This document shows positions 37,215-55,976 of a DNA stretch of 64,000 nucleotides, piece by piece. The stretch covers positions 121,523 to 185,522 of the forward strand of contig CAXXWX010000013.1 in NCBI GenBank assembly GCA_963675745.2. Direction: 5' to 3'. Positions within the stretch are counted from its first letter, which is position 1; each line of letters opens with the position of its first letter. Under the pieces are notes generated by a model. It had not been told where the DNA came from. It saw only the letters and a list, made by a program, of their open reading frames with translations, and searched no databases. The DNA comes from Phycisphaerae bacterium (GTDB lineage: Bacteria; Planctomycetota; Phycisphaerae; UBA1845; Fen-1342). The position numbers were made by a program, and so were the translations under genes.

Positions 37215-38309
37215 ATGATCGTGCGATTTTTCCTGGCGGCCGCGCTGGTCACGGTGGCGGCCGCGACCGCTGTTGCCGGTGACCCGGAGCTGGAGTCGAT
37301 TCAGCAGGAATACGAGAAGTACCGCAGCCAATGGGTGCAGGCGGCCGGGCTGCAAGTCGCGCAGGGCCGCGGCGATGACCCGGCCCAACTTCCGCCCGAT
37401 CCGTTCGAACTCGTGGTGGCCCGTGTGCGCGACTACGCCAACGAGCATGCGGGCACGCCGGCGACCATTCCGGCGCTTGTAATGCTCGTGAGCGGCGGTG
37501 ACCGGAGTGTGGGGCTTCCGCGCAGCCAGTCGGACGGCCTCACAGCGATCAAGCGGCTGACGGAGTCTCACGCGGCCGACCCGACGCTGAAGGACCATCT
37601 GGCCGCCATCCGCTACAGTTGCTTGGCTCTAAAAAAAGAACCGTTCATCGCGTTTTACACACATGTGATCGCGGTCAACCCGGACAAGGAGGCCAAGGCC
37701 CAGGCTCTGTACAACCTCGGGCTCACGCACTATCTCGATTCGTCCAGTTGGTTCGCCGACAAACCCAGCGACGCCGACCGCGAAAAGGCCATTGCGGTCT
37801 TTCGGCGGTTCATGAACCAATACCCGACGCACGCGCTGGTGGGTGATGTACGCCGGCTGCTGTATGACCTGGACAAGCTGTGGGTCGGCGAGCCGGCACA
37901 GCCACTGGTGGCCAAGGATGTTTCGGGTATTGAAGTTGACCTGGCCAAGCTGCGCGGCCGCGTGGTGCTGCTGAATTTCTGGAACTTCGACGTGCCGGGC
38001 GGCATCGCGATGATCCCGCGCCTGCGTGACATGTCCGTGAAGTTCCAGTTCAAGCCGTTCAGGATGATCGGCGTCAGCTCCGACGCGGACCTGGACACGC
38101 TGAAGTCACGGCTTTCGCAATTCGAAATGACCTGGCCCGACGTCTGGGAAGGCAAGGGGCGCCACATCTCCCAACGCTGGAATGCGCGCATTCTGCCGAC
38201 CATCTACCTCATCGACCACAAGGGCATCATCCGGCATCGTCTCGGTTACGTCGCCGGTGAGCATCTCGAAAAGCTGGTTGGCGAATTGCTGGACAAAGCC
38301 GAGGAGTAG
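37215..38309 (+). CDS. Exported TPR + TlpA/redoxin-fold protein lacking CxxC
   Basis: Signal peptide; L..LRGRVVLLNFW-NFDVPGG, PTIYLID.KGIIR; GGAG RBS. Confidence 0.8.
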   Translation: MIVRFFLAAALVTVAAATAVAGDPELESIQQEYEKYRSQWVQAAGLQVAQGRGDDPAQLPPDPFELVVARVRDYANEHAGTPATIPALVMLVSGGDRSVGLPRSQSDGLTAIKRLTESHAADPTLKDHLAAIRYSCLALKKEPFIAFYTHVIAVNPDKEAKAQALYNLGLTHYLDSSSWFADKPSDADREKAIAVFRRFMNQYPTHALVGDVRRLLYDLDKLWVGEPAQPLVAKDVSGIEVDLAKLRGRVVLLNFWNFDVPGGIAMIPRLRDMSVKFQFKPFRMIGVSSDADLDTLKSRLSQFEMTWPDVWEGKGRHISQRWNARILPTIYLIDHKGIIRHRLGYVAGEHLEKLVGELLDKAEE

Positions 38310-38325
38310 AGAGGGGGCGAGCGAC

Positions 38326-39042
38326 ATGGGGGCACAACCCGCGACAGCGGCCGGCGCCAACGCGCCGACATGCGTCCTGTGTGGCCGCGTGTTCAATTGG
38401 CGCCGCAGACGCAAGCCACTGTACGGTGTGGACGTGTGCGGCAGGTGCCGTAACGCCTTCGCCAATCGACGGCAGCTTGCGTACATCATCGACGGTGTTC
38501 TCTGGATGATCCCCGTTTTCGCGATAGGGTTTGTGCTGGGGTTCGTGGCGGCACTGCTGCTGCTGCCAATCCCCAACCTGACGACGAATCCCGTTCTCGC
38601 CATTCTGGGTTTCAGCAATCCGATTACGATCGTGCTGAGTTGGGGCCTTCCGTGGTTGTTCCTCTGCAAGGACGGTTTCAACGGCATGTCGCCGGGTAAA
38701 TGGCTGATGGGCGTGCAGGTTGTCGATCGCCTCACTCGCGAGCCGATCGGGTTCTGGCAGAGCTTCAAGCGCAATCTGATTCTGATGGTCCCGGTCTTCC
38801 CTCTCATCATCGCGCTGAGCATGATGAGTGGAAAACGGCTTGGAGACGGCTGGGCCAACACAGCCGTCATCTGGCGGAAGCACCGCTACGAGGCGCCCTT
38901 CGAGCCGCGCGGCATGTTCTGTCATGGCTGCGGCTACAACCTGACGGGGAATGTATCGGGGCGTTGCCCGGAGTGTGGCTTGCCGGTGCCGGCGCGACGA
39001 CCCGCGGCGGGTCCGACCTCCCTGCCCAACGAGACGGCGTAA
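38326..39042 (+). CDS. RDD family membrane protein with N- and C-terminal zinc ribbons
   Basis: RRQLAYIID, SPGKWLMGVQV, RLGD.WANT.V; CVLC...CGRC and CHGCGYNL...CPECG. Confidence 0.85.
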   Translation: MGAQPATAAGANAPTCVLCGRVFNWRRRRKPLYGVDVCGRCRNAFANRRQLAYIIDGVLWMIPVFAIGFVLGFVAALLLLPIPNLTTNPVLAILGFSNPITIVLSWGLPWLFLCKDGFNGMSPGKWLMGVQVVDRLTREPIGFWQSFKRNLILMVPVFPLIIALSMMSGKRLGDGWANTAVIWRKHRYEAPFEPRGMFCHGCGYNLTGNVSGRCPECGLPVPARRPAAGPTSLPNETA

Positions 39043-39158
39043 CTAGGCGGATGCCGCGCACCAGCAGCTCATTCACTGGTGCGTCACCGGCGGTTTGTCC
39101 TCCGGCGCGGGCAAACCGCCAGTTGCGGGGCGGTCGATCAGTTGAGCTTTGACGGGCA

Positions 39159-42100
39159 CTAATCCTCCACGAGGATGGTGCGGCCGGTGAACACCTGGGC
39201 CAGCCCGACGGCGAGTCCCGAGCTGTTGGGGTCGAGCGAGATGCCGCTGATGTCGCCCTTGGCCGCGTAAGCCATCTCGTCGCCCATCTCCATATACCCG
39301 GCGCTGAGGCTGTACGAGCCCGCCGCCAGCGAGATCGAGCCGCTGATCGTGATGGTGCCCGTCAGGTAGGCCGGGTCGGCTTCGCCGCCGCTGCCCTTGG
39401 GCATGAGGCTTTCGAGCGTAATCCTGCCGGACGTGCCGCCGAACGAGATTCCAACGGTAGGCCCGCCAACAGCGCCACTCCAGGTGTACGTTTCGCCGCT
39501 GTCATCGTCCGGCGTCAGCACGACGCCCACCAGCGAGCCGCCGGCGATGCCGACACTGCCGCCGGCTGTGGTCAGGTTGCCCTCCCACTTGATCATCTTG
39601 ATGCCGGCGGCTTCCATGGTCTGTTTGCGCACGCCGGACGCCTTGACCAACCAGCCCAGGAACGTAACCAGCAGCATGGCCACGACGAGCGAGATCATGA
39701 TCTCCAGGAGCATCTCGCCGCTCGGGTCGACGTGGTTGACCGGGTTGTTCTTGGTGTACAGGTACTTGTGCAGGCTCGGCGGGTCGAAGACGCTGCCCTG
39801 ACACGGATCGGTGCTGATGAAGCGTCCGGCGGCCGGGTCGTAATAGCGTGCCCGCAGGTAGTAGAAGCCCACGTTCGGGTCGTATTGCTCACCCGTATAC
39901 CGGAACTCGTTGGGCGTCGTACCGGCCTGCGCGATCAAATTGCCAAATGCGTCGTAGACATAAGCATCGGTGACGTTGCCGGTGGAATCGGTCAGCATGC
40001 GCGTCGACATCTGACCGTCGTAGACATAGTAGCGCGGACTGGTGTCGGCGCGGCGCATGCTGATCAGGTCGTCGCCGTGGAGATACGTGGTAACCACGCC
40101 GCCGCTGTGTTGCTCGATGATCTGGGCATTGGCGCGGTTGCAGTCAACCAGGTAGTGCGTGGTCTGGCCGTCGGCGGTCTTGCTGACGCGCGTGCCGTCG
40201 GCGTCATAGACGTACGCGACCAGACCCGGTGCGGCACCGGTCTGGACGTCGGCGGACACGAGGCGGTCTTCGGCGTCGAACGTATACGTGTCCGTCGCGA
40301 CACCGTCGCTACGGCTGCTCAGGTTGCCGTTGTCGTCATACGCATAGGTGGTGGTGACCGGAGCCAGGCGCTGATCGTACAGCGTTGCCTTGGCATGCTC
40401 TTGCATGGCCTGGATGTCGGTGGCCTGTACGTGCTCGGCCCCCACGATCATCGTGGGCAGCATTACCAGGGCGATGGTCTGTACGATGACGCGGCGCCGG
40501 CGTGCGGCGCGACCGAGATTGGCCGGCCGACGGCGCAGCAGACCCAGCGGCAACAGCAACGGCCACAGGCTGGCGACCGAGAACCCGGTCAGCACTGCCG
40601 CGGGCACAATCGATGGCCGCTGGTCATAGCGCGTGAGCACTGTGCCATTAGGTGTGCGCGGGGCCGCCACCACCAGCACCGTACGCACCTCGCTCACCAG
40701 GCGGCAGTTGTCATCGTACGTGTAGGTCGTCTCTGTTACGGACCCATTATGGGTGACCACCTGGCGTGTACGGTTGCCCACGGCGTCATAGGAATGCTCG
40801 AATACGGTTTGACTGCCGTCGGGGTCATTGATCTCCTCGCGCACCAGGCGATAGAGCGCATCGTAGGTGTAGTCGACCGTCCGGCCGGTGTGCTCGACGA
40901 CGCGTGTGCGGTTGCCGAGCGGGCCGAGCTCGTACACGTATGCGGCGACGATCTCCGATGTGGCGACGCGAATCGTCTCCATGTAGGTCAGGCGATTCAG
41001 ATCGTCATAGAGATAATTCGTCTGCGTGCCGTTCGGATAGGTGATCGAGGCGCGGTTGCCGGCCGCGTCGTACGTGTATGTTGACGTGGCTCCGTTCGGG
41101 TCGGTGACCGTTTCGAGCCGATTGAGTGCGTCATACGTGTAGGTTGTCTCGCCGGATGGGGCCGTCAGCGATGTGCGATTGCCCATGGCATCATACTCGT
41201 ACACCAGCGTGGCCCCGTTCGGATCGGCGACGGTCAGCAAGCGCCCGTGGCCGTCATATGTATACGCCGTAACGCCGCGGCTGTCGGTGACAGACTCGCG
41301 CCGACCGATCGGCGTGTAGGTGTAGGTAACCTCCGCTCCACCGGGCAGCAGTTTGCGGGCCAACCGGTTGTTGCTGTCGTATTCGTAGGAGATCGTCGCG
41401 CCGTTGTAGTCGGTACGCGCGATCAGATTGCCTTCGGGATCGTACTGCCGGTCGGTATCCATGCCGAGCGGGAGCATGGTCGAACTGCGCCGGCCGAGGT
41501 TGTCGTATTCATACTCGGTGACATTGCCGAGCGCGTCGGCCTGTGTGAGCAGATGGCCGAACTCGTCGTAGGTGTAGTCCGCCGTGTTACCGAGCGGATC
41601 GGTAACGCGGACGAGCTTGCCGCGCTCGTCATATTCGAACTGCACCGTGTTGCCGCCGGGATCGGTACTGGAAATGCGCCGGCCGCCGGCATCAAAGACG
41701 CTGCTGAGCGACGTGCCATCGTGGAAAATGACCTGCACGTTGCGGCCGGCCGCGTCGCGGACGTAGGTGGTCGTGTGGCCGTTGGCATCGGTCGTTGTTT
41801 CGAGGCGGTCCGCCGCGTCGTACGTCTTCACGGTCTCATGGTCGAGCGCGTCGATGATGTGGGTCTGGCGTCCGGCGTCGTCATAGACGTAGTCGGTCGC
41901 GTTGCCGCGCGCGTCGATCTCGCTCAGTACCCGGCCCACTTCGTCGTAGACCATTTCGCTGAACGTGCCGTCGTAGTGCGTCTTGCGGGTCTGCCGGCCG
42001 ACCGGGTCATACGTATACGTGGTCGTGAAGCCGGCCCGGTCGGTTGCCTCGACCTGCTGCCCTTCGGCGTCGTAGCTCCACAGCTCCTCGGTGCCGTCGG

Positions 42101-45100
42101 CGTAGAGGGCGCGCGTTCGCAGGCCGCGAATCTCATATTCGTATTCCGTGCGCCGGCCGAGCCGATCGATAGTCGCCGCCAGTTGCCCGGTCTCGTTGTA
42201 CTCGTTGAACGAAGCAGCGCCGTTGGGGTCGACCGTCTGCACGACGCGGTTCATCGCGTCGTACACGTACGCGGTGGTCAGCACCTCGGGGCCGCCGTCG
42301 GTCTGGCGTGTGGTCGACTCGGTCAGGCGGTTGCCGTTTTCGTCGTAGGTGTAGGTGGTCTCGACGCCGCGCGCGTCGGTCTTTCGCGTCTGCCGGCCAA
42401 ACGTGTCATACTCGAAGACGACCACGTTACCGAGCTCGTCGGTGAGGCTGGTGACGTTGCCGTTGGTGTCATAGGCGATCAGCCGCTCATCGCCGAGCTG
42501 GTTCACCCGCCGAATCAGCCGGCCGAACGCGTCGTATTCGTTCGTGACCATGTGGCCAAGTGGATCGGTCTCGGTGAGCACCTGGTTGCGCGAGTTGTAC
42601 GTGTACGTCGTCGTGTGGCCGAGCGGATCGGTCTCGGTGAGCACGTTGCCGCGGCTGTCATAGGTCTGCGTCGTCGTGTGGTCGAGCGCGTCGGTGCGCG
42701 TCAGCAGGTTGCCGTCGTCGTCATACGTGAACGTCGTGACGTAACCGAGCTCGTCCGTCTCCTCGATAACCTTGCCTTCGTCGTTATACGCGTAGATGTG
42801 TGTGTGACCGAGGCGATCGGTGACGGTCTGCGTGTTGTTCTCGTCGTCGTAGGCAAACTCGGTGCGGTAGCCGGCGGCATCGACCGCGGCGATCAGCCGC
42901 CCCTCGTCGTCGTAGACGTTCCGCGCAATCGCGTTGCCGCGCGGATCGACGATCTCGCGCAACCCGTGGCGGTTGTTGTAGGCAAACTCCGTCGTGTAGC
43001 CCGCGGCGTCGGTTACGGCGACGAGGTCGCCACGCCCGTCGTACTCATACTCCCACGCGTTGCCGCGTGGATCGACGATGCGCGTGATGCGGCCCTGGCC
43101 GTCGCGCTCAAAGTTGACCGCCAGGCCGCAGGAGTGCGTGATGCCGTTTTCGGTGAAGCTGAGCACGTTGCCGCTGGGGTCCTTGAACTGCTGCAAGCGC
43201 GAGACCAACGAATTGGGCGCGCCGACAAACGTATACTGGCGCCCGTCGGGCCGCGTTACGCGATAGGTCTGAGGATCCCAGGGCTGGTTGCCGTTGACGA
43301 CCAGCTCGCCCGGACCGGGGGCCATGCCGTTGAAGAGCGTCGGGGCGGCATCAAGCACTTCGAGTGTCGATTCGGCACCATCGAGCGGTACAAAGCTGAC
43401 GCCGTCGAGGAACAGAATCTGCGACAGTGACTGCTGGTCGGGGTCGACGCGGAGCGCGAAGAACTCGGTGACGCCGTCTTCAAACGTGACGGCGACGTAC
43501 TTTCCGCGCGTCGGCTGAATGACGTAGGTGGGGAACCAGCCGCCGATGACGATCTGCTCCCAGTCGGCACCGAGCGTGCTCGATTCCTGGAGCTGAACGC
43601 GTTCGACCGTGAGCTTCCAGCCATAGCCGAAATCGCCGGGCGCACGATCGCGGCTGTCGTAGGCGCGCGTCACGCTTACGGGCACTCCGGCCACCGGGAT
43701 GTTCAGGTCGGTGAACATGAGCGTGAAGTTGCCGACACTCAGATCGGTATCGAGCTGGTGTGTCTGCGTCACTTCACTGACATGGCCGGCCGTGTCCATC
43801 GCGCGCAGGCGCAGCTCAAACACGCCGTTGGCCATGGTTGCCGGATCAAGCTGGCCAAGCACGCCGTTGGTGACAGTGTCATATCCCGCGGCGATCTGCG
43901 TGAACTCGCCCTCGCCGACCGGGCGATAACTCAGCGTGTAACGGTACAGGTTGTCGTCATCGACGGTGCCGATTACGTCCATACGTGTCGTGACTGTCGC
44001 ATCGGCCGTCGGCGCCGTGATGGCCACGGTCGGCGGCGTCACGTCGCCGGTAACCGACGCATAGAAGTCCGCCGTCGCAACCGTGCTGTGGCCGACGACA
44101 TCGGTGGCGGTGGCCTCGGCGACATAGGCGCCCGGTGCCGTAGTGGTGTACTCCGCCTGCTGCTCGGCATCGAGGGCCACCGGATCTCCGTTGACGGTCA
44201 GCGTCAGTGAGGCGATCGCGAAATCATCCGTCGCCGTCACGCTGATCGTGACAGTTTCGCCTGGTGCGACCGCCGGCGGATCAACCGTGATGCTGACTTC
44301 GGGCGCGTACAGGTCCTCATCGGCGGATTCGAAGACGTCCACCGTGAAGGGTTGCGTCGCCATCGCGCCGAGAATGTCGGTCACCGCGACTTCGACGCCG
44401 TGCGGGCCGACCTGGTCGGCCGCCGGTGTCCAGGTGACCAGGCCGGTCGCCTCGTTGATCGACATGCCGTCAGGTGCCACGATTAGCGCGTAGGTGCGCG
44501 GATGCCCGTCTGGATCGGTGGCAAGCACGTCATAGCGGTATTCATAGCCGACAATCGCCCGCGTCGGCGCCGTCGAGATGAAGCTCGGCGGCGAGTTGAG
44601 GCTGACTGTCAGCGTGAAGGTCTGCTCGGCCCAGGCCGACTGCGCATCTTCGACGTGTACCGTGACATCGTGTACGCCCAGGTCCGCTTCGATCGGCGTC
44701 CAGGCAATCAGCCCGGTCGCCGGGTCGATCGTCATGGCGGGCGGCGCGACCGGCAGCGAGAACAACAGCGGCTGGTTCGCATCGTCATCGGCGGCGACCG
44801 GGTAAATGTAGTCATCGCCCACAACAACCGTCGTCGGCGCGACCGAGATGAACCACGGCGCGCCGTTGAGCCCGTCGGCGGAGACGGTCAGCGTGTAACG
44901 CTGCGTCGCAATGCCGCCGCGGCCGTCGTCGACCATCAGCTCGACGCGGTGTGTGCCAAGGTCGATCGGCGAGGGGGTCCACTCGATGACGCCACTGACG
45001 CTGTCAACACCCATCGTAGGTGGTGCGTCGAGCAGCGCGTAGCTGAGCACGTCGCCGTCATCATCGCGGGCCTGCACACCGTAGGTGTACAACGTGTCGA

Positions 45101-48100
45101 ATGCGGCCTTGCGCGGCGGCTGCGACGTGATGTGCGGCGCGACGTTATCGCCGAGCAGCGAGACCGTCACGGCGTACTCCTGCGTCGCCCAACCGCCGCG
45201 CCCGTCATCAGCGCGCAACGCCACGTCGTGCGTGCCGAGCTGGCCGTCGATCGGCGTCCAGTTGATCTGGCCGCCGGCGTCGATGGACATGCCGGCCGGC
45301 GCCGTGTCGAGCGCGTAGCTCAGCGCGTCGCCGTCGTCATCCTCGGCGGCCACGGCGTATACGTACGGCGCGTTCAGCACCGCTGTGTACGTCGGCGCCG
45401 AGACGATCCGCGGAGCCGTGTTGTCGCCGAACAGTGAGACGGCGACGTGGAAGCTCTGCGTGGCCCAGCCGCCCTGACCGTCTTCAGCACGCACGACAAA
45501 CGCGTGGCTGCCGATCTGCGTCAGCGTCGGCGTCCAGGTAATCGTGTCGGTCGCGCCGTCGAGGGAGGCGCCCGCTGGCGCCTGGTCGAGCGAGAGCGCC
45601 ACCGGGTCGCCATCAGCGTCGCTGGCGGTCAGCGCGTACGTGTACTCGCTCTCCGCGGCGGCGGAGAAAGTCGGCGTTGAGGTGATCTCGGGCGGGTGGT
45701 TGCTCCCGGTCAGCGAAACCGTCAACGGATACGTCTGCGTGACGACCCATCCGCGGCCGTCATCGACGCGCACAATCACCTCGTGCGTGCCGATCTGCCA
45801 CGCCGCGGGCGTCCATTCGATCAGTCCGCCGGCACTGTCGATCGTCATGCCGAGCGGGGCCGCATCGAGCGAGAACGTCAATGTGTCGTTTTCATCGTCC
45901 TCGGCCTCGACGGCGTACGTGTAGAGCACGCCGACCTGGGCCGTAAACGGCGGGGTCGATGTGATGCGCGGAGCGGTTTCAACCAATACCTCATCGCCCA
46001 GCGCAATCGTCTGCGTCGTACCCCAGCCATCGGTCGCCAGCACCTCGGCGGCAAACGGCCCAACTTCGGCAATCCACTGCACGACACCGGTGGTGGGATT
46101 AATGATCATCCCATCAGGGTTCGTGAGCAGCTCGAAGCTCACCGGCGGACACGTCGCGTCAACCTGTGGCACAAACGTCGCCAGCCAGCCCGGCACGAGC
46201 GTCGGCTGGTGATATGTCACGGTCAAGGCGCACTCGCGGACGTCGATCTCAAACACCTGAGTGCTCGGGCAGACGCCGTCGCGCGTGGCGACGACCGTGA
46301 CATCGTGTACGCCGATCTGGCCGGCGGTGGGCAGCCAGGTGATAAGGCCGCTGGCGCCGTCAATCGCCATCCCGGCCGGCGCCGTATCGAGCGCGTACGT
46401 CACCGTGCCGGCCTGCGTCTCGGCGTCCACGTCATAATCATAGGCAACATCCGGGCGTCCGACGGTCACCGGATCGGTAACGAACACCGGCGCGTCGGCA
46501 CACGGCGCCACGTCGATCTCAAACGCCTGCTCGTCGAACAGACCCGCCGGGTCTGAAGCGACGACGGTCACCGACTGCGGCCCATCCTGGCCGGCGGCGG
46601 GCAGCCACTCGATCAACCCGGCGTTCGGGTCAACCGTCATACCCGCCGGCGCGTCGCTCAGCGTATAGTCAATCACGTCTCCGTCGAGGTCGTTGGCCAG
46701 CACCTGGTAAGCATACGCCGCGCCGACCGCGGCCTCGGTGACCGGTTCAGAGAAGATCATCGGCGCGACGTTGACGGCGTCGGCCGTGATTTCGTACGAC
46801 TGCGTGACGAGTTCGAGTCCATCGCTGACGCCGACGGTCACCGCGTGCGGCCCGGTGGCGGCGGCGGTCTGTGGTACCAGCCAGGTGATCAAGCCGGTGT
46901 CCGGATGGATGTTCATCCCGCCCGGATATTCGACCAATCCGAAGCTGAGCTCATCGTCGTCGATATCCAACGCCGTCACGAGATAGGTGTAGATTTCGCC
47001 CTCGGTCGCGGTTGTCACCGGCGTCGAGGTGATCGTCGGCGGGACGTTGCTGCTGTGGACGTGAATCTCGAACACCTGTGACGCCGTATGACCGGCCGGG
47101 TCGCTGACGTGCAGTGCGACGGCGTGCGGGTTGTACTGGGCCGCGGTCTGATCGGGCAGCCAGCGCAGGAGCCCGCTGTTCGGATCGAGCGTCATCCCGG
47201 CCGGCCCGCTGTCCAACACATACGTCAGCGTGCCGCCATCCGGGTCAACCGCTACGACCTGGTACTCGTACCAGGTGTCTTCCAGCGCGCCATACACTGG
47301 GTCGGACGTGATCTGCGGGCCAAGGTCGATCGTGTCAACCGTGAGCGTATACACCTGCTGGCCACTGGCGCCCGATGCATCCGACGCTGCCAGGATCACC
47401 GTGTACGGACTGCCCGCGCCCGCGTCCTGCGGCGGTAGCCAGGTCACACGCCCGACCAGCGGGTGTATCGTCAGCCCGGCCGGACCATCGACAACACTGT
47501 ACGCAACGACATCACCATCGGCGTCGCTCGCCACGGCGTTGTAGACATACAGCGCGCCTTCCGTCGCCGCCGTAATCGGCGTGGACGTGAAGACCGGAGC
47601 GGCATTTTCATCCGTCACGTCAAGCGAGTAGATCAACTCCGCCCGGCAGTTCGCCGTGCTGGAGACCATCACCTTGACGGCGTGTGTGCCGGCGGCTGTG
47701 TAGGGCACATCCCAGGTGATCAGGCCATCCGCGTCGATCGCCATCCCGCCCGGCCCGACGCTCAGCGCGTAGCTCAGCGCGCCCGTGCCGCCGGCCTCGA
47801 CCTGGTAGCTGTAGAGCGTACCTTCGCTGGTCGATTGCGGCGGCGGATCGATAATCACAGGCGGATCGGCGCAGTCATTGACGAGCAGCACGAATTCCTG
47901 CTCGACCGCGTTGTCGGCCGGGTCGCTCGCGCGCAACTTGACCGCGTGCGGGCCGACCTCGGGCGCCGGCCACTCGAGCAGGCCGCTGGCCGGGTCAAGC
48001 GTCATCCCGGTTGGGCCTTCCAGCAGCTCGAACGTCACGATGTCACCGTCCGGATCAAGCGCATCGACCGTGTATGCGTAGGGCTCGCCGACGAGGGCCG

Positions 48101-51100
48101 TCGTGAGCGGGGCTGAGTGGATCACGGGCGGCACATCAACCGCCTCGATCGCGATCTCGAATGCCTGCGTCGCCTCACCTCCGTCGTGATTGTCATAGGC
48201 GACGACCGCGACGGCATGCCCGCCGGCCGCGTCTTGCGCCGGCATCCAGTCAACCAGGCCGGTAAGCGGATGAATCGTCATGCCATCCGGCGCGACGGGC
48301 GCATCGGCCAGCGCGTAGCCGACAACGTCGCCGTCATCGTCCACGGCTTCCACGTGATAGCGGTAGCGCTGACCTTCGACACCGACCGTGATCGGCGTTG
48401 ACACGAACCGTGGCGGTGTGTTGAACAGGTATGGAATCGCATCAAACGTAAACGCGAGGTTCTGCGCGTCGGCGAACTCGATCCACAGCGGCCCGATCGC
48501 CTCGCCGGGCATGAGCGTGTTGTTGGTCAGCAGATGGCTGAACTCGATGTAGGGCAGCGTCTGCCCCGTCTCGGTCGGATGCGGGACGACGCCCGCGATG
48601 TTGAGCAGCGTGACGGACGCCGGCTCGATGTTGTCAAACGCGAGGCCGATGGGGCCGGTGATCGGGTCGTTGCAATCGCTGACCAGCGTGAACTCGCCGC
48701 GATGTACGCCGGCGGCCGCGTCATAGTCGCGGACGCCGATGATCACGTGCATGCGCTCGCCGGCCGGCACGCGCGGGCCTTCCGGCGGGGCCACGATTAC
48801 CTCGGTCGTCGCAAGTGCCTCGGACCCATCGCTGTCGATGACGCGCGCGGCAACCACGTAGTTGCCTTGCGCGCTATAGCTGTGCGTCTGCGTGGCGCCC
48901 GTGTCGCCGGAGGCGCTGAACACGACGCCGTTGTAGTCCCAATCCCACTCGATGGGATCGAGTTGGTCGCAGGGCGTCTGGGCGTCGGCCTCGAAGTTGC
49001 CGAGCTGGTCGAGGCCCAGCGCGCTCGGTCCGCTGACGCTGATCGTCGGCACGCCGTCGAGCACGGTAACGTCGGCAAACGCCGGCTCGCTGTTTTCGCC
49101 GCCGTCCGAAACAATCAGGCCGACCTGATAGACACCGTCCGCATACCAGGTATAGGTTGGGGCCGGGCCGGTCGCATCGTCGTATTCGCCATCTTCGTCG
49201 AGATCCCAGGCATAGGTGAGCGGGTTCGCGTCTTCGTCGTATGAGCCGGTGCCGTCGAGCTGCACCTGCGTGCATTCGATGACCACATCCGGCTCGGCGA
49301 TCACCGCAACCGGTGCGTGGTTTGTTAACACCAGGACCGTCGTGAAGTCCGGCAACGATGGCAGCTTCTCATTGTTCGGGTGCAAAACGGCGTTGTCCCA
49401 CACGCGCAGGCCGATGTTGTAGCTGCCCGGCGTGGTGTAGACCCACTCAACCTGCGGGCAATCGTCGGGCGGCGCGTTGCAATCGACGGCTGCGTCGGCG
49501 TTGTCGAAGTCATACCCATCGGCGCCGTTGAAATCCCACTCCTGGCGCGTGATGTAGTCGGTCGGGTCGATATCAAACGAGCCGCTGCCATCCGGATGGA
49601 ACGGCACGCCGACATTCGTCGTATACGGCCCGCCGATCACGGCAAACGGCGCGTGCGGCGGCTCGGCGATCGTCACGAGGCGCGTGTCAACGTCAGTCTG
49701 CCCGATGTCGTCAGTTACGCGCAGGCGCGACTGGTAAGTGATCGGGTAGACGACATTCGGGTCTTGCCAGAAGGTGTGCAGCACATTCGGGTCGGCGCCG
49801 ACGTAATCGTAGGTGCCATCGCCATCGAAATCCCACTCGTATTGCTCGAGGACGCGGACCGGGTCGGTGTGGTATGAGGCCGACGCATCAAAAACCAGCG
49901 GCCGGTCAAAGGCCCACACGATGTCGTCGCCCGCAACGGCCACCGGGGGCCGGGTGAACAATGTCGGCGTGAGAATGACGATCTGCCAGGCGGATGCGAA
50001 GACCCGGCCGCGGTGGTCCGGCCAGCCGCCGTCGCTAAGCTGCTGATTGAGAATGTGGCGGATCAAGCCGCTTTCGCTGTTGTACCAGTCCAAGCCGGTC
50101 GGGTTGAGCGTGGTGATGGGCTCCGGCAGGGCCAGGCGCATGGCCTTGGCGAACGCGTACCAGGCGTACACGAAGTTCGAGCCGTCCGCACTCAGGAAGC
50201 TCGACCAACTGTTCGCCAGATAGGTTTCGGCGGTTTGCCAGCGTGGATCGCTGCGGTCAAACCCGCAGAAGGCCAACTGGACCAGCCCCGAAGGTGTGGT
50301 GGCCCAGGATCCGCCGCTGCTGCTGGAGTACCCGAATCCCGTGCCGTTGTAGCTGTAGTTCAGCCAGATGTCGTTTTCGTCCTTGACCCATGTCGGCGCA
50401 TCGAGGCCGAAGGCGGTTTTGGTGCCCGAGAAGCCGATCGCCGCCCATTGGCAGGCCGAGTTGTCAGCATTGACGTTCCAGTCGTAGCGCCAGCCGCCGC
50501 GGCCGCCGCCGTCATCCTCCTGCCCCCATGAGTACATGTCACCCATGTCCTGGGCGATGTCACGGTACGTGCGGCCGACAACCCCGCCGCTGCCGGTGCC
50601 GGCCACCAGGTCGGGTTCACCGGCGGCAGCCAACGCGTCCATGACCATACCGCCCTGGTAGATCGGCTGGCCATCATTCACGCCGATGCCCAGCTCGTTG
50701 CCGTTCGAATCCGGATTGCCGTACGGCTGGCTGCCGATCGCGTAGGCCGTCAGATATGTGAACAGCCGCTCAAAGCCGTGGATCACATCCGCAACAAGCG
50801 GGTCCCTGGTCACTGGGCGCATGGGCACGTGCCCGTTGATCTCCATGGCGTGAATGGATGAGGCGGTCGATCCGGACCGGTAGCTGCTGTACGACGACCA
50901 CGAGCCGTCGGTGTTCTGCTGCTTGTGCAGCCACCACAGGCCGTCATCGATGGCCACGTTGACTTCGATGGTCAGGTCGCGGGCGTGGATTTGCAGCGGG
51001 TAGGTGTCGGTCAGGTCGCCATACACCGGGTCGTGTACGGTCAAGGTTGCGGTGTAGAGCGCCCCTGGGGAGCCGTTGTATATGTGTGTGGTTTCGATGA

Positions 51101-54100
51101 CGCGCGTGCTGCCGGTCGCGCCTGTTTCCGGGTCGCTGCCGTCGCCGAAAGTCCAGGTGTAGCTCAGTGGCTGGTTGGCATCGACGGGCGTGTCGGTAAA
51201 GACCACCGCCTTGAGCTGCGCGCTCATTCCGTCCCAGGCATTATGCGGAACCTCGAGCCCGCTGATGTTGTCATAGTCCCACGGCACGCACACCGCCATT
51301 GGCTGCACGTCCACCTGCGTCGTGTCGGTGTCGCTGCGCCCGGCGGCGTCGTAAACCGTGAGTGCCACCGTGTAGACGCCAACCGCGTCGTAGATGTGCT
51401 GCGCGAATTTCCCATAGCCGGTGTGGCCGTCGCCGAAGTCCCACTCGTATCGGACAATGCCGTAATCGTCGCTGGAGCCTGATCCGTCGAGAACCGCATA
51501 GGACCCGAGTGGGGCGATGTAAGGTCCGCCAACATCCGCCACCGGCGAATCACCAAGCGCGACAACCGTAGCCACGGCGCTGTCGCTGCGCCCGGCGGCG
51601 TCAAAGACGGTCAACGTGGCGTTCATCTGCCCCGTGACGCGATACGGAATCGGGTTTGTCAGGAACGTGTTGCGCAGGTTGTCGAACTCGAACGTGCCGT
51701 TCTGCACGGTGATGCCGCGCAGGAATTCGGTTGCGCTGCCGTAGCTGGATACATAGAGCAACGTCCAGTCCGGGTTGCTGGCGCCTCGTATCCAGTACGT
51801 GGCCCCCGCGGTCTCGCCCAGCACGATGCGGATGACGTAGGTTGCCCCGGTGCTGTAGCTGATAGCGCTGCCGCGATTGGTGCCATCCTCGTAGATCTCA
51901 ATGGTGCCGTAGTTGAAGTAGACCGCGTACGGCATTTGCGTGTAGTTGTAGTCGCCGCCGGTGTTCTTGAGGCCGCACATCGCCCGGTTACCGGTCGCGC
52001 CCACCTGACACTCGAATACCTGGTTCGCCGAGCGGTGCATCACCTGTCTGGAGAAAGCGTAGGCGCCGCCCCAGCCGCCGGTACCCGCGATGGACAGCTT
52101 GCCATTGAGTGTTGCGCGCTCGAAAGCCCACAGGCTGGAGTCCAGTTCCGCTGTATCAAACGTGTCGGTCGGAAAATCCCACTGATATCGCACGACGCCA
52201 AAGTCGTCGGTCGAAGCGCTTCCGTCGAACGTGACTTCCTGGAACTTGTTGGCCAGCAACTCGGCCTCGTTCAGCACGTATGGCCCGCCGGACGCCGCCA
52301 CGGGCGGGTCGCCAACAATGTCGAGTACGGCGGTTTCGGACGAGGTCTGGCCGGCGGTGTCGGTGACCGTCAGCGTCACCGGGGTCGGCTCGTGCACCAC
52401 GTGCGTGGCCGATGGACCCCAGTTGCGCAACATGAGGTCGTCCATCACGAACCGCCCGGTGTTCACATCCGCACCAACCAGAAACTCGTCATTCGTCCCG
52501 TACACAGAATTGTAGATCAGGTGCCAATCGGTCTCGTCGGCGCGCCTAACGTAATAGCGCGCTCCACACGGGCTATAGAGCTCGATTCGCACGTCATAGG
52601 CCACGCCCTGCGTGTACTGGTAGAGGTACCCACGGTTATTGCCGTCTTCGTAGACATAGATCCAGCTGTTGTCGCGGAAGTACATCGCGTACGGCATCTG
52701 GGTGTAATGGTAGACGTCGCTGGTGTTCTTCAGACCCCACATGGAATTGCTGCCATTGGTGGGGACGATGCGCGCCTGGATCACTGCGCCGCCGGACCGA
52801 TGAGTTACCTCCCGGTTGAACGCATAGGAATTGCCCCAACCCGCGCCGAGCACCATCAGGCGGTCGCTCTGCCCGGCGCGCGCCGTGGCCCAGCGCAGCG
52901 GGTCTAGCACGACGCCGTTAAACGTGTCGATGCCGAAATCCCACTCATACCGCTCGATGTCCTGACCACCCGTCGTGCCGGAGCCGTCCAGCGTGAACGT
53001 CCACGCGTTCGAATTGGGGTCCGGATCACCCTCCGAGCGTGTGTATGGTCCGCCCGCATCGGCTGTCGGTGTGGCCGGATCGGCAGTAACGTCAAACGTG
53101 ACTGTCTCCTCCTGTCCACCCAGATCACGCACCGTCAGCGTCACCGGGCCGGCCACAAACGTCTTGCGCTCCAGCGGCGACCCCCAATGCACCTCGCGCA
53201 CCGACTCTATGATAAAGCTGCCGTTATCGCCGGTCGCACCGCATAGAAACTCGGTGTCGCTGCCGTGGGTGGAGTTGTAGAGAAATGTCCAATTCGGCTG
53301 TCCCGTTGGGCGAATCCAGTAGCGCGCCCCACGGCCGGGCTTCAGCTCGATCCGAACGTCGTACTCCACACCTACCGTGTACTGGTAAAGATACCCGCGG
53401 CTCTCGCCGTTTTTCGTAAACATAGATCCAGCTGTTGTCGCGGAAGTACATTGCGTACGGCATCTGGTCATAGCTGTAGTTGCCGCTCGTGTTCTTGAGC
53501 CCCCACATGGCGTTGCCACCCTGTGAGCGCACGCGCGCTTCGTAGAAGCGTCCCGGGCCGCGGACCAGCGGCTGGCGTGAGAACGCATAGCCGCTGCCCC
53601 ATCCGGAGCCGCGAACGTAGGTTCCGTTGTCCTGGTACGCACGCGCATGGAACCACTGGCCGGGGGTGAACAGCTGCCCGGCGAAATCGTCCTCGCCGAA
53701 ATCCCACTCGTAGTCGACAATCTCATACCCGCTGGTCGATGCGCCGGCGTCAAACGTAAGTGGCCAGCCGCCGTCAACCAGGTCGGCCTTGGTGCCGATG
53801 TACGGGCCGCCTTCATCAACGATCAGCGCGGGATCGGTGACCGTGACCGTTGTCGCGGCCGTCGCCGACGCGCCGTCGGCATCCGTGACCGTCAACGTCA
53901 CGGGGCGGTCAAAGTAGACTTGTGCGTGAAGGTCTCCCCGCCGAACGCTTCGCGCACTTCATCCATGGCAAACAGGCCGTTGTCGACCGTTGCCCCCGCA
54001 GAGTAACTCTGCCTCGGTCGAGTAGTTGGAGTTGTATACCAATGTCCAGCTACTGGAATCCGTTCGTCTTGAAGTAGTAGCGCGCCCCGCCGGTGTCCTT

Positions 54101-54796
54101 CAGCTCAATGCGCACGTCATAAGCCACGCCGGCTGAGTACTGCTGGTAATAGCCGCGATTGGAGCCATTCTCGTAGATGTAGATCCAGTTGTTATCGTTG
54201 AAGTACATCTCGTAGACCATTTCGCCGCGGTGGAAGCTGGCGCTGGTGTTCTTGAGACCCCAGGCCGCGTTGCCGGAGTGCCGTGTGACGCGGGCCTGGA
54301 ACGCGGCTCCCGGCCGCCGTTGGAGCGGCTCGCGGGTGAACGCATAGCTGCCACCCCAGCCCACTCCCAGAATGTACAGTGCATCGTCCTGATAGGTGTT
54401 GGCGGTCTGCCACTTGAACGTGTTGAGTTGCTTGCCGGGGAGCGAATCCGCGCCCAGATCCCATTGCCAGCTCACGAGATTGACGTCACTGCTCGAGCCG
54501 CTGCCGTCAAACAGCACATCCCAACCGCCGTCGATGCGATCAGCCGCATAGAGCGCATACGGCCCCCCGGGATCGGCTGTCGGTGTGCTGCGCGGGACAA
54601 GCTGCCCGACTTCGGCGTCGAGATCCCCGATCATACCGGGCTCTTGGCCGCCGCCCGCGGGCGCTGGCTGCGTGGCGTCAAGTTCCCAGTGACCCGACTG
54701 GGCGCGGGCCGGACCTGACCCCGCGCCGGCCGCCACCATGAGGGCCAGCAGCGCGGGCAGAACATGCAGCGGCAATGTGGCAAACGTGCGCATCAC
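39159..54796 (-). CDS. Giant secreted PKD / prenyltransferase-like / putative Ig / YD-Rhs repeat protein (~5,200 aa; four 1-nt indels near the 5' end)
   Basis: Signal peptide; PKD motifs (GGPY, YEWDFGD); Q..DG.W repeats; 15 Ig/cadherin-like repeats; YD repeats; Rhs core FRYTGEQYD...YYLRARYYDP..GRF...DP...NNPVNHVDPSG. ORFs 54050-54796, 53224-53901 and 39159-53819 join after indels at about 54057, 53995, 53920 and 53412. Confidence 0.88.
44330..48423 (-). repeat. About 15 tandem putative Ig (He_PIG/cadherin-like) domains
   Basis: Recurring N.PP.ITS.P...A....Y.Y.V.A.D.DGD...Y.L...P.GM.ID...G.I.W.P units. Confidence 0.85.
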
Positions 54797-55300: not shown

Positions 55301-55976
55301 TTAGTTTTGTAGCCGGCGCCGGAGGGCCGCGACGGCGGACATGCCGAGCGTGCCGAGCAGGGCGGCGGTTGGTGCCGGGATGGCGGCAACTGATAAATTG
55401 TCAATCGCGGCGATGCTCGACTGTCCGTTTTCCCCGCGGAGCAACCCAACGCGGAAAAGCACGTCCATGCCACTTAGGGAAGTCAGATCCACCGTCACGT
55501 CATACCAGCCCGGCCGGTTGGAGTTTGCCGTCGCAGCCCACGTCACATTTGCGGAATCGTATAACAGGACCGACGGCGTGATCGGCGGGTCCGGTACCTG
55601 GTGGTAGAAGTAGTCGTTCCGGCCGCTGGTGCTCAGCAGCGGATCCTCTGAGACCGGGGCAAGCAGAAACGCCGCAAATGCGTCGCGAAGCGACCCGCCG
55701 CTGAATGTACCGCTGGCTTGCAGGAAGTACTCAAACGACAGCGATGCGTCGTTGCTGCCGACCGTGAACGTCTGGGCGATCGAGCTCCATCGCCAGCCCC
55801 GTGCCTTCCGCAAAGACGGCGGCGTTATCTCCGCCGAGTGCGAGTACAGACACGTCGCCGTTGACAGTCCAGCCGTCGAGCCCGAGGCCAAAATCTGGAT
55901 TCGTCAATCCCCCAAACGTCGCGAGTGGCGCGGCGGCCAATAGGCAAATAGCCGCTATCCCTATGCGGAAACGCAT
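55301..55976 (-). CDS. PEP-CTERM-like (IPAP) surface protein, split by a 1-nt indel at about 55797-55800
   Basis: Signal peptide, N.DF..GL.GW carbohydrate-binding-like start, IDNL + IPAPTAALLGTLGMSAVAALRRR tail; 224 aa after removing one base. Confidence 0.8.

Follow-up and report, generated by a model that had tools for sequence, protein, structure and literature searches.

A putative membrane hairpin inserted in the beta-shell wall of an Rhs protein from a Phycisphaerae bacterium

An insert in the wall of an Rhs shell

We report here on an insert found within the shell of an Rhs protein encoded in a 64,000-nucleotide stretch of a Phycisphaerae genome (GCA_963675745.2, contig CAXXWX010000013.1, positions 121,523 to 185,522; this whole stretch is 'the window', and its numbering is used throughout). 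The host open reading frame (ORF), at 39159..53819 of the minus strand, is 4,886 amino acids long from stop to stop, and its residues 4377-4485 constitute the insert: 109 amino acids, in frame, at 40365..40691 (minus strand, as are all features of this gene given below). They replace a tight beta-turn between two YD strands, about 215 residues ahead of the DPSG autocleavage site. A preliminary description of this DNA had placed an in-frame insert of about 105 residues at 40361-40680, and alignment of homologues bore this out with the limits given above. The two hydrophobic stretches, the Arg-rich loop and the VQA after the second stretch, all listed there, are present in the sequence.

The insert opens with a strand extension and flexible linker (40611..40691), modelled with pLDDT below 50 in parts, which stops at the position of a P-x-P-S motif of the family. 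Helix 1 follows (40536..40610), helical in the model, with a Kyte-Doolittle (KD) 19-residue maximum of 1.77; it is a putative stop-transfer anchor running from outside to inside. The loop RRRPANLGRAARRRR (40491..40535) has 8 Arg in 15 residues and is putatively cytoplasmic; it may double as the basic tail of helix 1 and the n-region of helix 2. Helix 2 (40440..40490; KD maximum 1.84) is the putative h-region of an internal signal peptide, running from inside to outside, and AEHVQA (40422..40439) is its putative signal peptidase I c-region, with a cut predicted after the last Ala from the family consensus. An Ala-rich amphipathic helix (40365..40421) then returns to the YD wall, as judged from the alignment and the AlphaFold2 model. 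Among the 4,886 residues of the ORF, KD exceeds 1.5 just in the two insert helices and at the start of the C-terminal cargo. The insert matched no Pfam family, and the ESM Atlas gave no usable match.

On the N-terminal side of the insert, DUF6531 and RHS repeats form the first part of the shell (40692..43745; Pfam), with PF05593 YD repeats in 23 stretches. On the other side lie the last YD hairpins and the Rhs core (39717..40364; TIGR03696, E = 2e-21), where the R..D..DPSG autoprotease motif is present as RYYDPAAGRFISTDP...VDPSG, with its Arg, two Asp and DPxG end, as in PDB relatives. An AlphaFold2 model of the YD region with the insert in place, a check proposed in the preliminary description, covered residues 3510-4704 at a pLDDT of 88.9. 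The predicted beta-shell is unbroken around the insert, which appears (model residues approximately 868-976) as a low-confidence linker and three helices between the two flanking strands. The model resembles Rhs and teneurin-like shells with Z of 29-33 (9ifo: Z 33.4, rmsd 3.3 A, 801 aligned residues).

Indel errors elsewhere in the assembly of this gene (see below) raise the question of an assembly chimera or of a recent foreign insertion, either of which we hold to be highly improbable. The insert is not chimeric, since a single short-read contig of 10,712 bases crosses it and covers 38000-46541 with zero differences (the contigs come from three runs of one study, possibly of the source sample). 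Third codon positions have a GC content of 0.81 within the insert, compared to 0.79 and 0.84 on either side, so that codon usage is as in the flanks. The preliminary description had allowed for an insert absent from all homologues and joined by chimeric reads; homologous inserts occur across a non-redundant set of 72 proteins, and named genomes are among the carriers. It had also pointed to the occurrence of YDQR near both ends. This doubling is seen in 1/72 inserts, that of the window protein alone, and its two copies use different codons; a direct repeat marking recombination or splicing was thereby discarded, and the doubling is a matter of chance, with no part in the design of the insert. 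A genome scan found no second copy of the insert in the source genome. Further Rhs-core matches lie on contigs C3, C5, C15, C17, C19 and C28 of genome G000, none with an insert; some are in short open frames, and are either orphan cores or products of long-read frameshifts.

Conservation and distribution of the insert

The preliminary description had suggested a search for inserts at the same position in other Rhs proteins. The first homologue search gave a list of 120 proteins. With the query itself set aside, 22/119 had an insert of 82-131 amino acids, of the same build and at the same site; in three, a comparable hairpin lay some 60 residues upstream, and the remainder had the tight turn. 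As the query scored the insert itself, the share of 22/119 is inflated and is no frequency. After later searches, 301 proteins could be anchored, the span being long in 100 and short (4-24 amino acids) in 191. Removal of near-duplicates left 89 inserts, and 18 anchor mis-calls without a hydrophobic segment were dropped; the remaining 71 and the query make up a set of 72 non-redundant inserts, which is thus pre-filtered for at least one hydrophobic segment. Insert counts from different searches were kept unsummed, as some records were possibly reached twice.

Two segments of KD at least 1.6 are present in 68/72 inserts, and a loop with at least four Lys or Arg in 69/72. The loop is net positive in all 72, while the flanks are near-neutral. 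These counts, along with a conserved signal-peptidase-like site, give good support to the membrane hairpin proposed in the preliminary description. Family means are a KD of 2.14 over 17 residues for helix 1, 2.03 for helix 2, and 6.9 Lys or Arg compared to 0.5 Asp or Glu in the loop. The consensus reads P-x-P-S (P 63%, P 70% and S 49% over the 72 inserts), a helix with Pro, G-R-R-A-R-R-R-R, a second helix with Pro, G-P-E-N-V-x-A, then L. One short protein, P0370, has a partly duplicated insert, with two Arg clusters and two starts of helix 2.

Named carriers belong to uncultured Planctomycetota and to Binatia (7/22 loci in one pattern scan). The insert is rare, being found in 2/401 genomes of the phylum and in 5/61 relatives (two of the five partial), and it is optional, because most relatives are without it. 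On a tree of the flanks, the insert state requires 13 changes, a value obtained again in a second analysis, compared to about 49 with shuffled labels. Inserts are therefore clustered and patchy; they form no single clade in the best tree, where gain and loss are indistinguishable. A link between the insert and a hydrophobic cargo was considered and found unsupported: the raw counts (51/64 compared to 64/178) come down to 6 independent tree pairs, with a median p of 0.5.

Two genomes contain what look like separate halves. In G429 (99% complete), an ORF with a Met start just ahead of the Arg cluster holds helix 2, the last YD hairpins, the core and the cargo; it sits behind Ku/ligase-like genes (L058 5080-6741, minus strand), and no N-half was found in this genome with an insert-centred query. 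In G406, an N-half with helix 1 and the Arg cluster runs in frame into the partner gene described below, which encodes another exported protein; this fusion (L059 387-3554, plus strand) lies beside an IS-like transposase, and the same kind of query found no C-half. A split into two genes by a stop inside the insert was seen in 0/12 insert-bearing loci of the pattern scans (7/22 and 5/6, with patterns spanning a portion of the insert lengths; one of the 12, L024, contains an assembly gap). Short proteins starting inside the insert, such as P0233 and P0212, could not be placed on contigs and were left out of the counts.

Hairpins of comparable layout occur elsewhere in these proteins. The upstream hairpin (helix-RRR-helix) lies in the YD wall of P0015 (4800-4900), P0072 (2505-2610) and P0107 (2745-2845), and in the latter two it comes after an extra inserted domain of about 200 amino acids. 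P0015 is from a named Anaerolineae. The upstream hairpins occupy a different shell loop, and their alignment with the insert is weak (28%), which suggests a separate origin. A hairpin near the N terminus (residues approximately 150-300) is found in the insert-less P0032, P0096, P0103, P0104 and P0120, with which P0085 aligns. Its sequence looks like that of an IPTL-CTERM signal with a second signal peptide behind it; on the five scanned hairpins, the midcut-by-XrtH model NF033207 gave weak matches, below cut-off (E = 5e-6 to 1.8).

Gene start, stalk, cargo and partner gene

The topology argument developed below needs an N-terminal signal, which makes the start of the gene important. The assembly frame is broken at four places within 53410-54063, each a single-base indel relative to short-read contigs; we treated these breaks as assembly errors. 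The true 5' end of the gene then extends over 53820..54796, out of frame in the assembly. Its pieces each read as open repeats of one N-terminal domain, and the first, starting at about 54793, has a ribosome-binding site and a Sec-type signal. A signal-like start is present in 17/22 full-length insert-bearing relatives; the other five look truncated. In eight proteins of the family (P0008, P0022, P0026, P0027, P0036, P0037, P0044 and P0048) the leader begins with a signal-like helix and continues with an amphipathic segment some 25 residues long and a P-x-x-A-E-A site. Short Binatia-type inserts end much like these extended leaders, with a profile match that is not significant. Between the signal and the shell lies a long stalk (43746..53819), with PKD and at least 14 He_PIG Ig-like domains (Pfam). 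Within 44022-53819, a helical region between PKD domains (approximately amino acids 950-1290), in which W-x-Y motifs occur, and five copies of a beta-rich N-terminal repeat fall outside Pfam families.

The 185-residue cargo (39159..39716) has a strongly hydrophobic first helix (KD 2.65), then a Gly-rich region. It belongs to no Pfam family, and the ESM Atlas returned just weak, unnamed matches; cargos differ among the insert-bearing loci. Behind the cargo, the window holds no same-strand immunity gene, and a convergent RDD gene is there instead; small same-strand ORFs follow the Rhs gene at L009, L021 and L027. The start of the cargo (39660-39716) resembles a mature type IV pilin, with F-T-L-x-E and a hydrophobic helix. 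Across relatives, x-[ST]-L-x-E follows the DPxG in 62/277 cargos, compared to 1.4% of shuffled ones, and the best offset of a pilin matrix falls one residue past the DPxG Gly in 129/277. This pilin-like start is family-wide, with or without insert, and might route the cargo via a pilus or a type II system.

A partner gene (55301..55976, minus strand) lies 500 bases upstream of the Rhs gene. It encodes a signal peptide, a beta-sandwich like those of carbohydrate-binding modules (model pLDDT 78.5; Z 13.1, rmsd 2.5 A, 120 aligned residues) and a PEP-CTERM-like tail; it matched no Pfam family. Its single frame break, near 55790, coincides with the junction of two contigs. The partner was found in 5/61 relatives, exactly the five that have the insert, a co-occurrence to be read knowing that two of the five were in the query alignment and that the G429 matches are weak; it was not found in four genomes where related cores occur and the insert had no match. 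The partner and the Rhs gene are direct neighbours at L008, L009, L010, L027, L028, L058 and L059, and the partner was not seen in the DNA examined around L002, L014, L021, L024, L025, L026 and L030. Some variants have the PEP-CTERM-like tail, others Cys-rich repeats or a VWA-like region.

Possible functions of the insert and known systems

We lean towards the view that the insert is an anchor-plus-signal cassette, making the Rhs protein a small polyprotein. From the features above we infer membrane insertion, cleavage and re-assembly along the following lines. Led by the N-terminal signal, the stalk and the greater part of the YD shell would pass through Sec, until helix 1 and its Arg tail would halt transfer and anchor the N-half in the cytoplasmic membrane. 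Helix 2, behind the same Arg cluster, would resume export as an internal signal peptide, and signal peptidase I would cut after V-Q-A (between VQA and T). The freed C-piece of about 420 amino acids would comprise the last YD hairpins, the autoprotease core and the cargo; its first strand would pair with the last strand of the N-half, so that the shell would close non-covalently. The insert could then serve to hold the shell to the membrane close to its core end, the Ig stalk being directed away and a polymorphic, often hydrophobic cargo lying inside.

Several observations point to cleavage after helix 2. The second half of the insert shows a basic n-region and a hydrophobic h-region, as an internal Sec/signal peptidase I substrate would, and signal peptidase I is encoded by two genes in the source genome. 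At the V-Q-A column of this protein, 55/72 inserts obey the (-3,-1) rule, the best of all columns tested, and Pro or Gly stands at -6 of this column in 45/72. The consensus of the site is P 76% at -6, V/A 69% at -3 and A/G 78% at -1, with a variable -2. The motif P/G..[AV]x[AG] follows helix 2 in 50/72 inserts, compared to 28% of shuffled tails and 9/72 after helix 1; after internal helices of the membrane proteins of the source genome it is found in 86/425. Aligned by hhalign to N-terminal leaders of the family, the second half of the insert gave E of 0.001-0.002, a weak likeness, and the first half 0.7-0.8. The separate halves in G429 and G406, the hairpins elsewhere in the family and the two-chain shells of Tc toxins also speak for the polyprotein view.

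Other results weigh against this view. The motif was picked post hoc from the alignment, in inserts that are related to each other, and genuine N-terminal signals carry it in just 31-33% of cases. The profile probability of the second half against leaders is only 14-22%. A cleavage-site matrix trained on the genome did not separate helix 2 from ordinary inside-to-outside helices (AUC, area under the curve, 0.46) and scored helix 2 over helix 1 in only 31/72 inserts; this matrix had mostly learned hydrophobicity, with an AUC of 0.77 on its own control. With a position matrix built on helix 2, the N terminus outranked the rest of the protein in only 49/105 full-length relatives. In 17/72 inserts the (-3,-1) rule fails at the conserved column, and the commonest residue at +1 is Leu (46% of inserts), which is unusual at a signal peptidase site. 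The cargo helix, at KD 2.65, exceeds both insert helices, and the standard Rhs model requires it to cross by way of Sec; hydrophobicity alone is therefore no proof of arrest. Finally, the stand-alone ORF of G429 is without the motif at the conserved column, and the G429 and G406 halves may have arisen by mere deletion and have come to light only through an insert-centred query.

Some of these points lend credit to an uncut tether, in which the hairpin would sit in the cytoplasmic membrane with its Arg loop on the inner side and the two shell halves on the outer side, and P-E-x-V-x-A, rather than being a peptidase site, would cap an interfacial amphipathic helix and form its first turn. We consider this the main alternative, possible if doubtful. 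The evidence for topology serves it equally well, and the inserts lacking the site, the Leu at +1 followed by a conserved amphipathic helix and the negative outcome of the trained matrix are what it would predict; an uncut chain would also keep the shell covalently whole. It accounts poorly for a site that keeps small residues at both -3 and -1 and Pro at -6 while -2 varies, for the enrichment of the motif relative to shuffled tails and to helix 1, and for a natural ORF that begins at the Arg cluster. The preliminary description had offered either a tether or an internal sorting signal fused to a second signal peptide. An anchor with an internal signal peptide fits better than a plain tether, and is partly supported: the trained matrix did not favour helix 2 as a cleavage substrate, and helix 1 matched no known C-terminal sorting signal. 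If helix 1 were nonetheless a tripartite sorting signal, an exosortase or rhomboid could cut it while signal peptidase cuts helix 2, the hairpin being excised and the shell re-anchored on lipid or moved to the cell surface. Helix 1 followed by a basic cluster does have the tripartite layout, which, with a motif ahead of the helix, matches that of the signals shown in the accessible text of PMC11980579; IPTL-like internal signals exist elsewhere in the family, the tail of the partner is PEP-CTERM-like, and the source genome has three exosortase genes (PF09721). We nevertheless judge such double processing unlikely. The NCBIfam sorting-signal models (PEP-CTERM, IPTL-CTERM, MYXO-CTERM and midcut-by-XrtH) left the window insert unmatched at E up to 10, in a scan that did detect the PEP-CTERM tail of the neighbouring gene; with 23 aligned inserts, no non-YD match was better than E = 0.006, and the best ones involved single members. 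P-x-P-S lies some 8 residues ahead of helix 1 and is missing from the short Binatia-type inserts, XrtH was not found in the source genome (91% complete), and profile comparison with IPTL-type hairpins gave probabilities of 3-32%.

The anchor-plus-signal cassette, the uncut tether and double processing all share one membrane topology. It would be otherwise if the shell shielded the helices, within it or on its surface, so that they formed a plug or served for later insertion in a target membrane. Precedents come from SGS1, whose Rhs/YD shell encloses predicted transmembrane helices (PMC9935623, in its accessible text), and from type VI secretion system (T6SS) Rhs effectors, which have transmembrane domains for target membranes (accessible text of PMC7773334); the cargo helix, too, indicates that hydrophobic segments can be packaged. 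Against this, the chain begins with a Sec-type signal, the loop follows the positive-inside pattern in 72/72 inserts, and the cavity must also house the cargo, so that we find shielding quite improbable.

Going further with the anchor-plus-signal cassette, we tentatively suggest that exported Rhs carriers use it as a movable element that cuts their own beta-shell in the course of export, the open N-half, kept at the membrane next to the translocon, catching the separately exported core and its hydrophobic, pilin-like cargo. It is equally tentative that the design arose repeatedly, as in the different loop of the Anaerolineae-type hairpins, and that a core with its cargo could be self-exporting and swappable between shells in trans. 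The accessible text of PMC13018210 treats as an open question how the shells of Sec-exported Rhs and teneurin-like proteins, in the absence of an injection machine, come to be displayed, loaded and opened. A conserved, optional hairpin in the shell wall offers a direct handle on this question. If cleavage is real, it would represent a bacterial polyprotein strategy that divides one folded domain, and the insert would point to a site at which a break in an Rhs shell is tolerated. For annotators, mid-protein anchor-signal cassettes are missed by current models. The preliminary description knew of no Rhs protein with this topology, and none turned up in the literature searched; neither a membrane hairpin inside an Rhs shell nor a pilin-like Rhs cargo was found described there, most subscription papers being outside that literature. 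What is known, as far as the accessible parts of the sources go, comprises the Rhs family to which the protein belongs, mid-chain sorting signals placed between domains, and viral polyproteins cut by signal peptidase; the hairpin insert in the wall of this Rhs shell is real, conserved and optional, and apparently undescribed.

The closest relatives are Sec-exported Rhs/YD polymorphic toxins and bacterial teneurin-like proteins, which, in the accessible text of PMC13018210 and PMC3482391, share the N-terminal signal, adhesion domains, YD shell, autoprotease core and variable, sometimes hydrophobic cargo. There, anchoring is described through N-terminal lipoprotein or wall-binding parts and the shell is without a membrane segment, whereas here the putative anchor is in the shell wall, near the core end. 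T6SS Rhs effectors and mosquito SGS1 also have hydrophobic helices associated with an Rhs shell, but, in the portions of PMC7773334 and PMC9935623 available, these lie before the shell or after the core, and not within the wall. An Rhs shell made from two polypeptides is found in the B and C subunits of Tc toxins (TcdB2/TccC3 and YenB/YenC2; PDB 4igl, 4o9x); these are encoded by separate genes, have no membrane hairpin, and their junction comes much earlier (YenC2 from model residue 608).

The order of elements proposed for the insert, namely a stop-transfer helix, a short basic loop, a signal helix and a small-x-small site, is also that of viral envelope precursors such as those of bunyaviruses. 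Flavivirus polyproteins and Bradyrhizobium FbcH, the latter not returned by the literature search, are likewise cut by signal peptidase at an internal anchor-signal hairpin. The products of these precursors are separate, distinct proteins, whereas here one beta-shell would be cut and must re-close. A substrate of ArtA reportedly has a non-terminal tripartite signal. Mid-chain signals with a motif, a helix and a basic cluster are otherwise represented by the midcut-by-XrtH family (NF033207) and by the internal MYXO-CTERM of MXAN_5598, which, in the accessible text of PMC11980579, sits between separate domains and bears a motif already known; the cassette described here would instead split a single folded domain.

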